Source: Escherichia coli
GTDB lineage: Bacteria; Pseudomonadota; Gammaproteobacteria; Enterobacterales; Enterobacteriaceae
Length of the DNA stretch: 64,000 nt
Reading direction: 5' to 3' (one strand)
Assembly (NCBI RefSeq): GCF_044324785.1
Contig: NZ_CP172127.1
Shown here: positions 35,220-60,419 of the stretch, one piece after another
Numbering within the stretch: the first letter of the stretch is position 1
How the letters are laid out: the number at the start of each line of letters is the position of its first letter
Position numbers and translations under genes: made by a program
Notes under the pieces: model-generated
The model's database searches: none
Told to the model about the DNA's origin: nothing
What the model saw: only the letters and a program-made list of their open reading frames with translations

Positions 35220-36410
35220 TCACAGCACCTTATGCGGGCCAAAGCATTCGTAATGAATGTTTTCCTGCTTCACGCCCAGATCCACTAACTGTTTCGCGGC
35301 AAACTGCATGAAGCCAACCGGGCCGCAGAGATAGAACTGCATTGTCGGATCGCTGAACGCACCTTCCAGTTTGCTCAAATCCATCAGACCTTCGCTATCA
35401 AACTGACCTTTAGCGCGATCGGCTTCGCTTGGCTGACGATACCAGGTGTGCGCGGTAAAGCGCGGCAGTGCTTGCCCCAGTTCCTTAACTTCATCGGCAA
35501 AGGCGTGAACATCGCCATTTTCTGCCGCATGGAACCAGTTCACTTGTGCTGTGTGGCCAGCTTTTGCCAGCGTGTCGAGCATTGCCAGCATTGGCGTTTG
35601 ACCGACACCGGCAGAGATTAACGTCACTGGTGTGTCATCTGCGACAGCCATAAAGAAATCACCTGCTGGAGCAACCAGTTTCACGACATCGCCAACATTG
35701 GCGTGATTGTGCAGCCAGTTGGATACCTGCCCGCCCTCTTCGCGTTTCACCGCAATACGATAGCCTTTGCCATCCGGTTTGCGAGTCAAAGAGTACTGAC
35801 GAATTTCCTGATGCGGGAAACCTTCCGGCTTCAGCCAGACGCCGAGATATTGCCCCGGACGGTATTCTGCCACTGCGCCACCGTCGACCGGCTCCAGTTC
35901 GAAGCTGGTGATAAGTGCGCTGCGCGGTGTTTTAGCCACAATGCGGAAATCGCGAGTACCTTCCCAGCCACCGGCTTTGCTGGCGTTTTCGTTATAGATT
36001 TCCGCCTCGCGATTGATAAATACATTAGCCAGTACGCCATAGGCTTTACCCCACGCGTCCAGCACTTCCTGGCCCGGGCTGAACATTTCGTCCAGCGTCG
36101 CCAACAGGTGTTCGCCGACGATGTTGTACTGTTCCGGTTTGATCTGGAAACTGGTGTGCTTCTGCGCGATTTTTTCTACCGCTGGCAGCAGCGCAGGCAG
36201 GTTTTCAATATTACTGGCGTAGGCGGCAATGGCGTTAAACAGGGCTTCACGTTGATCGCCATTACGCTGGTTACTCATGTTAAAAATTTCTTTGAGTTCT
36301 GGGTTATGAGTAAACATACGGTCGTAGAAATGGGCGGTTAACTTTGGCCCTGTTTCCACCAGTAAAGGGATGGTGGCTTTTACTGTAGCGATGGTTTGAG
36401 CGTCAAGCAT
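35220..36410 (-). CDS. hmp: Flavohaemoglobin (NO dioxygenase), 396 aa
   Basis: ORF 35220..36431; internal ATG (cat 36408-36410) gives [17 protein letters not shown]...; globin plus FAD/NAD reductase domains. Confidence 0.97.
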
Positions 36411-36427
36411 ATGGTCTTCCTTTTTTT

Positions 36428-36461
36428 GCATCTTAATTGATGTATCTCAAATGCATCTTAT
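36428..36461. promoter_or_regulatory. hmp promoter operator: NsrR-type palindrome (AAGATGCATTTGAGATACATCA on the hmp strand) with overlapping FNR-like TTGATgtatCTCAA
   Basis: Palindrome 18-51 bp upstream of the hmp ATG with a duplicated TGCATCTTA element; matches the recalled NsrR/FNR repression site. Confidence 0.7.
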
Positions 36462-36621: not shown

Positions 36622-36737
36622 ATTCCTTTGTCAAGACCTGTTATCGCACAATGATTCGGTTATACTGTTCGCCGTTGTCCAACAGGACCGCCTATAAAGG
36701 CCAAAAATTTTATTGTTAGCTGAGTCAGGAGATGCGG

Positions 36738-37991
36738 ATGTTAAAGCGTGAAATGAACATTGCCGATTATGATGCCGAACTGTGGCAGGCTATGGAGCAG
36801 GAAAAAGTACGTCAGGAAGAGCACATCGAACTGATCGCCTCCGAAAACTACACCAGCCCGCGCGTAATGCAGGCGCAGGGTTCTCAGCTGACCAACAAAT
36901 ATGCTGAAGGTTATCCGGGCAAACGCTACTACGGCGGTTGCGAGTATGTTGATATCGTTGAACAACTGGCGATCGATCGTGCGAAAGAACTGTTCGGTGC
37001 TGACTACGCTAACGTCCAGCCGCACTCCGGCTCCCAGGCTAACTTTGCGGTGTACACCGCGCTGCTGGAACCAGGTGATACCGTTCTGGGTATGAACCTG
37101 GCGCATGGCGGTCACCTGACTCACGGTTCTCCGGTTAACTTCTCCGGTAAACTGTACAACATCGTTCCTTACGGTATCGATGCTAGCGGTCATATCGACT
37201 ACGCCGATCTGGAAAAACAAGCCAAAGAACACAAACCGAAAATGATTATCGGTGGCTTCTCTGCATATTCCGGCGTGGTTGACTGGGCGAAAATGCGTGA
37301 AATCGCTGACAGCATCGGTGCTTACCTGTTCGTTGATATGGCGCACGTTGCGGGCCTGGTTGCTGCTGGCGTCTACCCGAACCCGGTTCCTCATGCTCAC
37401 GTTGTTACTACCACCACTCACAAAACCCTGGCGGGTCCGCGCGGTGGCCTGATCCTGGCGAAAGGTGGTAGCGAAGAGCTGTACAAAAAACTGAACTCTG
37501 CCGTTTTCCCTGGTGGTCAGGGCGGTCCGTTGATGCACGTAATCGCCGGTAAAGCGGTTGCTCTGAAAGAAGCGATGGAGCCTGAGTTCAAAACTTACCA
37601 GCAGCAGGTCGCGAAAAACGCTAAAGCGATGGTAGAAGTGTTCCTCGAGCGCGGCTACAAAGTGGTTTCCGGCGGTACTGATAACCACCTGTTCCTGGTT
37701 GATCTGGTTGATAAAAACCTGACCGGTAAAGAAGCTGACGCCGCTCTGGGCCGTGCTAACATCACCGTTAACAAAAACAGCGTACCGAACGATCCGAAGA
37801 GCCCGTTTGTGACCTCCGGTATTCGCGTGGGTACTCCGGCGATTACCCGTCGTGGCTTTAAAGAAGCCGAAGCGAAAGAACTGGCTGGCTGGATGTGTGA
37901 CGTGCTGGACAGCATCAATGATGAAGCGGTTATTGAGCGCATCAAAGGTAAAGTTCTCGACATCTGCGCACGTTACCCGGTTTACGCATAA
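36738..37991 (+). CDS. glyA: Serine hydroxymethyltransferase, 417 aa
   Basis: ORF 36732..37991; ATG 36738 after AGGAG; PLP-lysine motif [14 protein letters not shown]. Confidence 0.98.
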
Positions 37992-38024
37992 GCGAAACGG
38001 TGATTTGCTGACAATGTGCTCGTT

Positions 38025-38128
38025 GTTCATGCCGGAAGCGGCATGAACGCCTTATCCGGCCTACAAAACTTTGCAAATTCAATATATTGCAATATCCGTG
38101 TAGGCCTGATAAGCGTAGTGCATCAGGC
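38025..38128. repeat. REP/BIME cluster downstream of glyA
   Basis: Hairpin GTTCATGCCG...CGGCATGAAC, then REP copies GCCTTATCCGGCCTAC and inverted GTAGGCCTGATAAGCG...CATCAGGC. Confidence 0.8.
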
Positions 38129-38149
38129 AATCTTAGGTTTGTGATCATC

Positions 38150-38171
38150 AAGGCTTCCTTCGGGAAGCCTT
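38150..38171. terminator. Hairpin AAGGCTTCC ttcg GGAAGCCTT between glyA and yphH (putative terminator)
   Basis: Perfect 9-bp stem with tetraloop; flanks are not strongly T-rich. Confidence 0.45.
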
Positions 38172-38188
38172 TCTACGTTATTGCGCCA

Positions 38189-39382
38189 TCAAATCTGCCG
38201 TAACTGCGCCTCAACATACAAATAGCCAATTCCCAGCACCTGTTGTGCGCGGCTTAATTGCCCAAAGCCAATCTGTGTCGCTTTCACGCTCGGTCCTTCG
38301 TCGCGGTCGAAAGGGTTAAATCCCGTCTGGCGAATGATGGTATTAAGCCAGTTCTCACCAAAGGCACAACTGCGACCGTACAACCAAATCTGATTAATAT
38401 TGAGGATGTTGAGGAAGTTATACAGACTCAAACCAATGGCGTTGGCAGAGCGATCAACCCAACTGGTGATCCACGGTTCTCCACTCTGCCAGGCAGCGAT
38501 TAACTGCGCAGTAGTCAGTTTTTCAGGATCAAGCTGAGTATTAACCGGTTGTGATTTTAGCCATACCCGCGCCTGTTTTTTTAATGCGCTTAACGAGGCG
38601 ACGGTTTCCAGGCAGCCATAACGTCCGCAGTCGCAGACGACGCCATCCGGATTAACGATGGTGTGACCAATCTGTCCGCTACCATACAAACTGCCGCGAT
38701 AAATTTGCTCGTTAATCACGAACGACGAGCCAATGCCGTAATCAACGTTGATCACGCAGAAATCCCGGCCCTGCGAATTATTTTGCCATTTCTCCGCCAG
38801 CGCCAGCATCACGCAGTCATTATCGACCATCACCCGAATGCCGAGCTTCTCTTCCAGCAGATACTTTACCTCAACCGGCGTTGTCCACGGTGCTTGCGGC
38901 ATGGTTTGCGACACGCCAGTCACCGGATCAACCTGACCGTGGATTGCCAGCGCCAGGTTGATGGTACGGTCCGGCCACAATTTACGGTGGCGATGCCAGC
39001 ATTTTTCGATTTCGGACAGCAGCGCCTGCGGCGTCGGTGCATCAATCTGTAAATACTCAAATTCACCTTTCGGACTTAAACAGGCGTTAGCGACCTGACA
39101 CTCAATACTGGTGGGCGTCACGTTCAGGCACAGCGTCCAGTCACCTTCCGGCGCAATCAGCCATGTACCGCTACTATGCCCGCGCGTCTGGCTTTCATCG
39201 TCGATATTCACCACCCGTTTTTCGCTTTCCAGTTCCTGCAAAATATTACTGACCGCCGGAATCGAAATTTGCGCCAGCCGGGCCAGGGTTGATTTATTGG
39301 CGCGCTTTTGCCGGTACAGCAGTTCCAGAATCACGCATTTGTTATGGTGGCGAATCTGTTGATTATTAATGCAGGCTCTCAT
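38189..39382 (-). CDS. yphH: ROK (NagC/Mlc)-family transcriptional regulator YphH, 397 aa
   Basis: ORF 38189..39388 (GTG); ATG (cat 39380-39382) gives MRACINNQQIRHH...; N-terminal HTH and ROK CxCGxxGC zinc motif. Confidence 0.85.
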   Translation of the reverse strand: MRACINNQQIRHHNKCVILELLYRQKRANKSTLARLAQISIPAVSNILQELESEKRVVNIDDESQTRGHSSGTWLIAPEGDWTLCLNVTPTSIECQVANACLSPKGEFEYLQIDAPTPQALLSEIEKCWHRHRKLWPDRTINLALAIHGQVDPVTGVSQTMPQAPWTTPVEVKYLLEEKLGIRVMVDNDCVMLALAEKWQNNSQGRDFCVINVDYGIGSSFVINEQIYRGSLYGSGQIGHTIVNPDGVVCDCGRYGCLETVASLSALKKQARVWLKSQPVNTQLDPEKLTTAQLIAAWQSGEPWITSWVDRSANAIGLSLYNFLNILNINQIWLYGRSCAFGENWLNTIIRQTGFNPFDRDEGPSVKATQIGFGQLSRAQQVLGIGYLYVEAQLRQI

Positions 39383-39499
39383 CTTCACTAAACCTTGTTT
39401 AGTTAATTGCGTGATTATTCCGCGAAAACATTGCCAGATTGTTCAATACACTGCCACAAATCTTTTAATTCAGTATGTCTTGTTAATATTGAGGGCACC

Positions 39500-47556: not shown

Positions 47557-48429
47557 ATGACCATCTATACCTTGTCCCACGGGTCGCTAAAGCTGGGCGT
47601 TTCTGACCAGGGCGGCGTAATCGAAGGCTTCTGGCGCGATACGACGCCGCTCTTACGTCCTGGTAAAAAAAGCGGTGTGGCAACCGATGCCTCTTGTTTT
47701 CCGCTGGTGCCATTTGCAAACCGGGTGAGCGGCAACCGTTTTGTCTGGCAGGGGCGTGAGTATCAACTGCAACCGAATGTTGAGTGGGATGCGCACTATC
47801 TGCACGGCGACGGCTGGCTGGGGCAGTGGCAATGTGTCTCGCGCAGCGAAGATAGCTTGTGTCTGGTGTATGAACATCGCAGCGGTGTTTATCACTATCG
47901 GGTAAGTCAGGCGTTTCATTTAACGGCGGATACGCTGACGGTGACGCTCTCTGTCACCAATCAAGGGGCAGAGACGCTGCCATTTGGTACCGGCTGGCAT
48001 CCTTATTTTCCGTTGTCACCACAAACGCGGATTCAGGCGCAGGCGAGCGGTTACTGGCTGGAGCGGGAGCAGTGGCTGGCGGGTGAGTTTTGCGAGCAGC
48101 TACCGCAGGAGCTGGATTTCAACCAGCTCGCGCCGTTGCCGCACCAGTGGGTAAACAATGGCTTTGCCGGATGGAATGGTCAGGCCCGCATCGAGCAGCC
48201 GCAGGAGGGTTATGCCATCATCATGGAAACGACGCCACCTGCACCATGTTATTTCATCTTTGTTTCCGACCCGGCGTTTGATAAAGGATATGCGTTTGAT
48301 TTCTTCTGTCTGGAACCGATGAGCCATGCGCCGGATGACCATCATCGCCCGGAAGGGGGTGATCTCATTGCGCTTGCACCAGGGGAATCAACAACTTCAG
48401 AGATGTCGTTGCGGGTTGCGTTACTGTAA
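47557..48429 (+). CDS. yphB: Aldose 1-epimerase-family protein YphB
   Basis: 290 aa; ORF-track match, RBS AAGGAG. Confidence 0.85.
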   Translation: MTIYTLSHGSLKLGVSDQGGVIEGFWRDTTPLLRPGKKSGVATDASCFPLVPFANRVSGNRFVWQGREYQLQPNVEWDAHYLHGDGWLGQWQCVSRSEDSLCLVYEHRSGVYHYRVSQAFHLTADTLTVTLSVTNQGAETLPFGTGWHPYFPLSPQTRIQAQASGYWLEREQWLAGEFCEQLPQELDFNQLAPLPHQWVNNGFAGWNGQARIEQPQEGYAIIMETTPPAPCYFIFVSDPAFDKGYAFDFFCLEPMSHAPDDHHRPEGGDLIALAPGESTTSEMSLRVALL

Positions 48430-48437
48430 TTTATAAA

Positions 48438-48477
48438 ATGCCGGATAAGGCGTTCACGCCGCATCCGGCATGTTTTT
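48438..48477. repeat. REP-type palindrome between yphB and yphA, also serving as terminator
   Basis: ATGCCGGAT aaggcgttcacgccgc ATCCGGCAT followed by GTTTTT. Confidence 0.75.
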
Positions 48478-48898
48478 AACGCCGATCGAGAGAAATTGCC
48501 CCCGGCCCGGTAATTGCCAACAGCAGGAATGCGCCAGCGATACTGACATTCTTCCAGAAATTAATCATATTTGGCCCAACCGCATCGCCGGTCATATCCC
48601 AGTAATGGTGACCAATTACCGCTGTACCCAGCGTGTAGAAAATAAACAGCACCGCCAGCGGACGGGTGAAAAAGCCAAGCACGATTAATATCGCGGCGGG
48701 CACTTCCATAACTACCGCAATAATCGCTGCCAGCATCGGCATTGGCGCGCCCAGCGAGGCCATATATTGGACCGTACCGTCAAAACCCATCATTTTGGGA
48801 AAACCAAAAATAATGAAAATTAAGACCACGGCGATACGGGCAATTAATAACAAAACGGGGCGTGCAGCACCAAAATCAAAATAACGTAGTGAGTTCAT
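48476..48898 (-). CDS. yphA: DoxX-family inner membrane protein YphA, 140 aa
   Basis: ORF 48476..48970; internal ATG (cat 48896-48898) gives [14 protein letters not shown]... Confidence 0.85.
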
Positions 48899-48994
48899 AA
48901 CCAATCCCTTTGCAAGATAATGTGATTTAAACGTAATACACACTCTGGTACCTCGCCACGCCCCAGGCATTGAGATATTCGCTAATTATCCTGG

Positions 48995-58920: not shown

Positions 58921-59661
58921 ATGCTGCAAAATATTCGAATTGTGCTGGTGGAGACGTCACACACCGGCAATATGGGTTCTGTTGCCCGTGCCATGAAAAC
59001 AATGGGATTAACCAATCTGTGGCTGGTTAATCCACTGGTGAAACCTGACTCCCAGGCGATTGCCCTGGCAGCAGGGGCCAGCGATGTGATTGGTAATGCT
59101 CATATCGTCGATACGCTCGACGAAGCGTTAGCCGGTTGTAGCCTGGTGGTGGGCACCAGCGCACGCTCCCGCACGCTGCCGTGGCCGATGCTCGACCCGC
59201 GCGAATGTGGTCTGAAAAGCGTCGCTGAAGCGGCAAATACCCCGGTGGCGCTGGTTTTTGGTCGTGAGCGTGTTGGCTTGACCAATGAAGAGTTGCAGAA
59301 ATGCCATTATCATGTCGCGATTGCTGCGAACCCGGAATACAGTTCGCTGAACCTGGCGATGGCGGTTCAGGTTATTGCCTATGAAGTGCGCATGGCCTGG
59401 CTGGCAACTCAGGAAGATGGCGAACAAGTCGAGCATGAAGAGACGCCGTATCCGCTGGTCGATGATCTGGAGCGTTTTTATGGTCATCTGGAACAAACGC
59501 TGCTGGCAACCGGTTTTATTCGTGAAAACCATCCGGGGCAGGTGATGAATAAATTGCGCCGTCTGTTTACCCGTGCGCGCCCGGAAAGCCAGGAATTGAA
59601 TATCCTGCGCGGGATTCTGGCTTCTATAGAGCAGCAGAATAAAGGTAATAAGGCCGAATAA
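58921..59661 (+). CDS. trmJ: tRNA (cytidine/uridine-2'-O)-methyltransferase TrmJ (YfhQ)
   Basis: 246 aa SpoU-class methyltransferase. Confidence 0.95.
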
Positions 59662-59669
59662 CAGTGGTT

Positions 59670-59753
59670 GCCTGATGCGACGCTTAATGCGTCTTATCAG
59701 GCCTACAATGTACAGAACCGTAGGTCGGATAAGGTGTTCACACCGCATCCGAC
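59670..59753. repeat. REP/BIME pair between trmJ and iscR
   Basis: GCCTGATGCGACGCTTAATGCGTCTTATCAGGCCTAC and GTAGGTCGGATAAGGTGTTCACACCGCATCCGAC in inverted arrangement. Confidence 0.8.
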
Positions 59754-59799
59754 AACAGGTACAAACGCCACGATAAAAAAATGGCACTGAAGGTTAAAT

Positions 59800-59930: not shown

Positions 59931-60419
59931 ATGAGACTGACATCTAAAGGGCGCTATGCCGTGACCGCAATGCTTGACGTTGCGCTCAACTCTGAAGCGG
60001 GCCCGGTACCGTTGGCTGATATTTCCGAACGTCAGGGAATTTCCCTTTCTTATCTGGAACAACTGTTTTCCCGTCTGCGTAAAAATGGTCTGGTTTCCAG
60101 CGTACGTGGACCAGGCGGTGGTTATCTGTTAGGCAAAGATGCCAGCAGCATCGCCGTTGGCGAAGTGATTAGCGCCGTTGACGAATCTGTAGATGCTACC
60201 CGTTGTCAGGGTAAAGGCGGCTGCCAGGGCGGCGATAAATGCCTGACCCACGCGCTGTGGCGTGATTTGAGCGACCGTCTCACCGGTTTTCTCAACAACA
60301 TTACTTTAGGCGAACTGGTTAATAACCAGGAAGTGCTGGATGTGTCTGGTCGTCAGCATACTCACGACGCGCCACGCACCCGCACACAAGACGCGATCGA
60401 CGTTAAGTTACGCGCTTAA
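59931..60419 (+). CDS. iscR: Fe-S cluster regulator IscR
   Basis: 162 aa Rrf2-family; cluster-ligating Cys residues (CQGKGGC...C). Confidence 0.97.

Follow-up and report, generated by a model that had tools for sequence, protein, structure and literature searches.

Descriptions of REP/BIME elements go back to the 1980s, and the sequence beyond glyA counts among the classical cases: Plamann and Stauffer reportedly found, in 1985 and again in 1990, that a structured region distal to glyA affects both the decay of glyA mRNA and glyA expression.

BIME-1 consists of a y and a z1 REP with a long, well-conserved L linker and frequently an IHF site, and occurs as single copies, whereas BIME-2 combines y and z2 REPs with a short S linker and forms tandem arrays (PMC3333891). 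Z1 is the short Z type (PMC1584274, PMC3333891), and the requirement of REPs for a GTAG/CTAC foot has also been described (PMC3333891). BIME-1 is known under two other names, RIB (Boccard & Prentki 1993) and RIP (Oppenheim et al. 1993); the title of the former paper, as cited in PMC3479197, speaks of IHF-binding RIBs as lying at the 3' ends of transcription units. Gyrase cleavage has been documented for BIME-2 (PMC6379681), within which the Y REP is the type that gyrase prefers. REPs in general stabilise mRNA and bind IHF, and the spread of REP/BIME sequences has been attributed to the REP-associated tyrosine transposase TnpA-REP/RAYT (PMC3333891, PMC3479197). About 80% of E. coli REPs were reported as transcribed (PMC4550694), and polymorphism of BIMEs by presence and absence is known as such (Bachellier et al. 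1997).

Here we describe the element that follows glyA in a 64-kb stretch of Escherichia coli DNA, referred to below as the window. Judged by its sequence, it is almost certainly a BIME-1 (RIB/RIP) copy composed of a Y REP, an L linker and a Z1 REP. It is of an already known kind, an ordinary and well-described repeat with nothing new about it. We are also confident, if a little less so, of the full statement that joins this identity to transcription as the 3' UTR of glyA.

Architecture of the glyA-yphH spacer

The 419-aa ORF upstream of the element was identified as glyA by its match to NCBIfam NF000586 (678 bits, E 3e-204) and by the RefSeq name in matching E. coli records; the convergent gene downstream likewise carries its RefSeq name, yphH. 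Between the glyA stop (37991) and the yphH stop (38189) lies a 197-nt spacer that houses the BIME-1. The spacer allele is closest to that of strain 042 and its relatives (99.4%); identity to the K-12 allele is about 94%. The features of the locus are as follows.

35220-36431, minus strand: hmp
36732-37991, plus strand: glyA coding sequence (serine hydroxymethyltransferase)
37992-38001, plus strand: spacer after the glyA stop codon, GCGAAACGGT
38002-38149: whole BIME-1 repeat unit, 148 nt, delimited by alignment of filled with empty alleles and by the fepA-entD copy; ends accurate to a few bases
38002-38029, plus strand: left outer flank, GATTTGCTGACAATGTGCTCGTTGTTCA; found in the fepA-entD copy, absent from the yaaX-yaaA copy
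38025-38048, plus strand: alternative hairpin, GTTCATGCCG/CGGCATGAAC, a perfect 10-bp stem with a GAAG loop (RNA, -16.5 kcal/mol) that overlaps the 5' half of the Y REP
38030-38064, minus strand: Y-type REP (palindromic unit), in the GTAG orientation on the minus strand and in inverted form, ending CTAC, on the plus strand
38065-38099, plus strand: L linker, 35 nt, A+T-rich, including an IHF-like site, ATTCAATATATTG, at 38077-38089
38100-38129, plus strand: Z1-type (short) REP in the GTAG orientation; hairpin of -11.7 kcal/mol
38130-38149, plus strand: right outer flank, ATCTTAGGTTTGTGATCATC; found in the fepA-entD copy, missing from empty alleles
38150-38171: terminator-like hairpin common to the convergent glyA and yphH, AAGGCTTCC-TTCG-GGAAGCCTT; 9-bp stem, -14.2 kcal/mol
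38172-38188: 17-nt tail before the yphH stop
38189-39388, minus strand: yphH (ROK-family, NagC-like regulator), convergent with glyA

The original prediction had placed a REP/BIME element with two REP copies in opposite orientation downstream of glyA and had proposed a formal search for the REP consensus, and the search bore this out. The Y consensus matched 38030-38064 with two mismatches and the Z1 consensus GTAGGCCTGATAAGCGTAGCGCATCAGGCA matched 38100-38129 with one, with 0.00 matches expected by chance in each case, and the pattern for the REP foot, CTTATCMGGCCTAC, gave four matches in the window when up to one mismatch was allowed, against 0.02 expected. The strings quoted in that prediction were found where it had put them, GCCTTATCCGGCCTAC at 38049-38064, GTAGGCCTGATAAGCG at 38100-38115 and CATCAGGC at 38121-38128. 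The two REPs lie tail to tail around the L linker, with the conserved foot tetranucleotides CTAC (38061-38064) and GTAG (38100-38103) facing each other over its 35 nt; a repeat search found that the feet form a 15-nt inverted repeat, CTTATCCGGCCTACA/TGTAGGCCTGATAAG, that is 93% complementary. A consensus for the 36-nt long-Z (Z2-like) REP gave no match to the element with three mismatches allowed, because neither of its REPs is of the long-Z type. No T-run follows either REP of the element.

Two further statements of the original prediction held in part. A hairpin does exist after the glyA stop, at 38025-38048, but it is not separate from the REPs: the last five bases of the left flank, GTTCA, pair with TGAAC within the Y REP, so that the hairpin is the 5' half of that REP paired with the end of the flank. 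Similarly, the span given for the element, 38025-38128, does contain the quoted strings but is too small, as the repeat unit extends from about 38002 to about 38149; it exceeds the reported span because both outer flanks align with the copy between fepA and entD.

Assignment to BIME-1

All the characters that define a REP are found at 38030-38129, namely palindromes matching the Y and Z1 consensus, the foot tetranucleotide, and an extragenic and dispersed occurrence. The sequence also has those of BIME-1: Y and Z1 REPs that are inverted relative to each other, a conserved long linker with an IHF-type site, and a single unit in the window, situated at the 3' end of a transcription unit. We found nothing essential in which it departs from described BIME-1; what differs is two Y REP substitutions in the window allele that favour the alternative hairpin, and outer flanks that match the fepA-entD copy and not the yaaX-yaaA one. 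The conservation of the linker is most evident in a 20-nt core, TGCAAATTCAATATATTGCA, which is identical in K-12 and in two further Escherichia lineages (L014 and L028) and matches at 19 of 20 positions in the fepA-entD and yaaX-yaaA copies.

The original prediction had named gyrase or IHF as the binding partner. IHF is indeed the partner linked to BIME-1, but gyrase cleavage has been documented for BIME-2, and it is highly improbable that the element after glyA is a gyrase-binding BIME-2. It does contain a Y REP, the type preferred by gyrase within BIME-2, and shares with BIME-2 (for example, the REP pair between trmJ and iscR at 59670-59755) REPs of alternating orientation with GTAG/CTAC feet. 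However, its Z REP is the short 30-nt Z1 and not the long Z2, its linker is a 35-nt L linker with an IHF-type site where the trmJ-iscR pair has 13 nt and lacks such a site, and it is a single unit and not a tandem array; the gyrase enrichment reported in the literature is for BIME-2. We therefore refer to the element below as BIME-1.

Other copies and distribution among strains

Over 143 nt, corresponding to 38005-38148 of the window (query positions 11-153/154), the copy between fepA and entD has 86-88% identity to the element; it includes both outer flanks and is oriented in the same way with respect to the gene upstream of it. In genomes without the element at glyA, this copy was the best remaining match. 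It differs from the glyA copy in lying between co-directional genes and in the last 10 nt of the linker, GGACCAT as against ATATCCGT at glyA. A K-12 copy between yaaX and yaaA (NC_000913.3 5000-6500, L007) shares the Y REP and the L linker but has a long Z REP (Z2-type) and other outer flanks, so the L linker is not confined to Y/Z1 pairs. The RefSeq copy of NC_000913.3 has no repeat features annotated at glyA, nor at yaaX-yaaA; as the latter locus does hold a BIME, the missing repeat annotation is uninformative.

Across complete E. coli genomes the query matched at least 26 places in each of 5,425 of 5,426 genomes, and at least 40 in 4,948 records. At the glyA-yphH site itself, the element was found in 1,932-1,983 of the 5,426 (about 36%), leaving about 64% without it. 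In the empty alleles the sequence TAATCTGTTG(A)AAAAA, 15-16 nt long, stands in place of 38002-38149 in a clean alignment; the counterpart of this segment can be written as TAATCTGTTGAAAAA. Strains of O157:H7 and O111 and strain NQ3 are empty at this site, and the search of Nissle 1917 and of an ST131 strain likewise turned up no full-length match, only the fepA-entD copy. When 30 E. coli records were sampled evenly down the ranking, every element-bearing record matched at the query length of 261 nt, and in the remaining records the match was confined to query sequence lying outside the element; four of those records were aligned and proved empty. The comparison between strains, which had been proposed as a check for copy-number differences, thus showed differences by presence and absence, and no tandem amplification at glyA-yphH was seen in these 30 records.

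Among the species-representative genomes, an element at the same site, the 3' end of glyA, was present in three non-coli Escherichia lineages, L014, L018 (E. whittamii) and L028. About 33 nt are deleted from the interior of the E. whittamii copy, and the yphH genes of L014 and L018 are about 92% identical to that of the window. In Kluyvera, Enterobacter, Pluralibacter and other genera, glyA is followed directly by an A-tract, a GC hairpin and a T-tract, an arrangement like that of the empty E. coli allele. From these sequences we infer that the empty state is ancestral, and that the insertion would be either old or moved between Escherichia species by recombination, with both states persisting. 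It is unlikely, in our estimation, that the filled and empty spacers represent an old polymorphism, perhaps trans-species or spread by recombination, with regulatory consequences; if they did, the alleles could differ in glyA mRNA stability and in read-through from yphH antisense to glyA.

Predicted folding of the RNA

The RNA of the intergenic region, read from the plus strand, had a predicted folding energy of -76.3 kcal/mol (z = -6.0 relative to shuffled sequences), and the K-12 allele of the same region gave -80.6 kcal/mol (z = -6.9). Relative to K-12, the window allele carries two substitutions in the Y REP, one changing GGATGC to GGAAGC (T-to-A at 38037) and the other GGCGTG to GGCATG (G-to-A at 38043). 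Together they weaken the canonical Y hairpin by 5.6 kcal/mol, from -21.3 to -15.7, and make the stem of the alternative hairpin perfect. In K-12, the alternative and the canonical Y hairpins differ little in energy (-21.6 versus -21.3 kcal/mol), and in the window allele the alternative hairpin is better in context by about 6 kcal/mol. This 042-type allele of the Y REP is common to about 145 genomes at 99% identity or above. Being shifted towards the alternative fold, it might escape recognition by TnpA-REP.

A consensus fold predicted with RNAalifold from seven sequences at two loci was three-way. Its first part is the alternative hairpin; the second is a long stem in which the 3' half of the Y REP pairs with the 5' half of the Z1 REP, enclosing the linker; and in the third the left flank, by way of its AAUGUGCUCG in the predicted folds, pairs with the 3' half of the Z1 REP. 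Among these seven sequences, which have little diversity, no compensatory double changes were found in the predicted pairs. All nine one-sided substitutions in predicted pairs keep the pairing on the plus strand, eight by going to G-U and one by changing U-G to U-A, a count that is weak evidence and biased, in that the structure was derived from the same seven sequences on which it is judged.

Small RNA and small protein readings of the element

Two Rfam families align with the element. RF02751 (ES036/CssrF) aligned over its full model length with 38066-38107, scoring 37.1 bits (E 5e-5) against a gathering threshold of 37.6, and 34.2 bits in the K-12 allele. RF02564 (naRNA4/CssrE) aligned with 38010-38061; it scored 29.6 bits in the window and 38.2 in the K-12 allele, against a gathering threshold of 59.5; only its first hairpin, which is a Y REP, was aligned, and 44 model positions were skipped. 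Comparison with the consensus sequences of the two families explains where the alignments fall, as that of ES036 is the L linker plus GTAGGCC and that of naRNA4 is a Y REP hairpin. CssrF and CssrE come from other Shigella loci, dacB/yhbZ and yggN/yggL respectively, and both were detected there by northern blot (PMC3071730), and naRNA4 comes from the REP325 cluster, where Y plus Z2 units are needed (PMC4550694).

That the element is an independent small-RNA gene, of the ES036/CssrF or the naRNA type, is suggested by these two matches on the linker and the Y REP and by the northern detection in Shigella. The reading is nevertheless very unlikely: both scores are below gathering; the models amount to the L linker and the Y REP; the named RNAs belong to other loci; and a promoter scan of 37900-38300 on both strands gave no promoter-like site, with no promoter called in either the filled or the empty allele. 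For naRNA4 in particular, assignment takes at least 59.5 bits and two hairpins (Y and Z2) in one 77-nt unit, and the RNA itself depends on the Y plus Z2 units of REP325. An independent sRNA gene was accordingly rejected. The ES036 and naRNA4 models give near-threshold matches on any BIME-1, and could seed false annotation of sRNAs.

Two open reading frames overlap the element:

38016-38144, plus strand: ORF of 42 aa
37942-38151, minus strand: ORF of 69 aa

Apart from the existence of these frames, the one point in favour of an encoded small protein is that the match coincides with an annotated 'hypothetical protein' in a single RefSeq genome. Its likelihood is virtually nil, since the frames vanish wherever the repeat is missing, the sequence is a multi-copy non-coding repeat, and almost all the nucleotide differences that separate the window allele from that of K-12 alter an amino acid in the plus-strand frame. 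On this substitution pattern, and on the absence of the frames together with the repeat, the small-ORF reading was also rejected.

Possible role of BIME-1 at the 3' end of glyA

The hairpin at 38150-38171 is outside the repeat unit. It was invariant across the filled and empty E. coli alleles examined and was found in other Escherichia too. The tail that follows it, TCTACGTTAT, is moderately T-rich only, and a simple terminator scan did not call this hairpin in either the filled or the empty allele. BIME-1 is probably part of the 3' UTR of glyA, because it lies upstream of this conserved terminator-like structure. Transcription of glyA would then run through BIME-1 as far as the hairpin and yield a highly structured 3' UTR; the filled allele lengthens the region 3' of glyA by about 135 nt of highly stable predicted structure. 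The stable stem-loops of BIME-1 would slow 3'-to-5' exonucleolytic decay of glyA mRNA, and stabilisation of this kind is plausible at glyA by analogy with REPs elsewhere. As DNA, the L linker would be bound and bent by IHF. The site ATTCAATATATTG has one mismatch to the IHF consensus WATCAANNNNTTR, but such matches occur at chance level in the window (56 found, 46.8 expected); as the motif match is no better than chance, putative IHF binding at the linker would be expected only from membership of the BIME-1 family and not from the motif. A search of the available literature gave no IHF ChIP evidence at glyA/yphH. The element itself would have arrived by REP/BIME spreading, with about 15 nt of the ancestral A-tract before the terminator hairpin being replaced.

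It is improbable that the REPs themselves are the terminator of glyA. Such action has been reported for REPs in some contexts (PMC3333891) and the stems here are strong, but neither REP has a T-run after it, and 21 nt further downstream there is a separate hairpin whose tail is T-rich, conserved in other Escherichia and whether or not the BIME is present. A serious rival to the functional reading is a different one, that BIME-1 at glyA, as a neutral or selfish passenger, affects neither glyA nor yphH nor chromosome structure, because two-thirds of the strains are without the element. We regard this as a real possibility, if not the one we favour. The absence from about 64% of complete E. coli genomes, the partial deletion in E. 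whittamii, and the ability of other genera to manage with a bare terminator directly after glyA all fit a passenger, as do the two substitutions that weaken the canonical Y stem in the window allele and the lack of compensatory double changes among the sequences folded. Against it stand the fact that Escherichia lineages whose yphH has diverged by about 8% have kept the element at this site, the retention of plus-strand RNA pairs in the nine one-sided changes (the biased count described above), and the effect on expression that classical genetics is said to have attributed to the glyA distal region. What can be said more firmly is that the element is dispensable, because about 64% of E. coli are without it and the E. 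whittamii copy is internally deleted. Any benefit of BIME-1 at glyA is probably quantitative and small, since most strains do without it.

The insertion also changes the sequence on the yphH strand. On the minus strand after the shared hairpin (38140-38175), the empty allele has a T-run, reading …GGAAGCCTTTTTTC, whereas the filled allele reads …GGAAGCCTTGATGATC, so that the T-run CCTTTTTTC is swapped for CCTTGATGATC. Speculatively, its loss may weaken termination of yphH, and antisense transcripts could then extend into the BIME and glyA.

The assignment matters little beyond correct annotation, that is, of a repeat (BIME-1) and not of an sRNA or a small ORF, and the near-threshold Rfam matches show how easy misannotation as an sRNA is. 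For comparisons of glyA expression between strains it is relevant that two-thirds of E. coli are without the 3' UTR insert, and the glyA-yphH locus offers natural allele pairs for the effect of BIME-1 on mRNA decay and convergent transcription.

Other REP sequences in the window

A second REP pair, with BIME-2-like architecture, is located at 59670-59755, between trmJ (58921-59661) and iscR (59931-60419). A long Z-type unit with CTAC at its end is joined by a 13-nt linker to a Y-like unit that begins with GTAG, and the stem of the Y-like unit carries paired substitutions (GTCGGAT...ATCCGAC; GGTG...CACC). In addition, a solitary Y-type REP that lacks the GTAG/CTAC foot is present on the minus strand at 48436-48470, between the convergent ORFs 47557-48429 (plus strand) and 48476-48970 (minus strand). 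It may act as a terminator, because TTTTT follows it on the plus strand.
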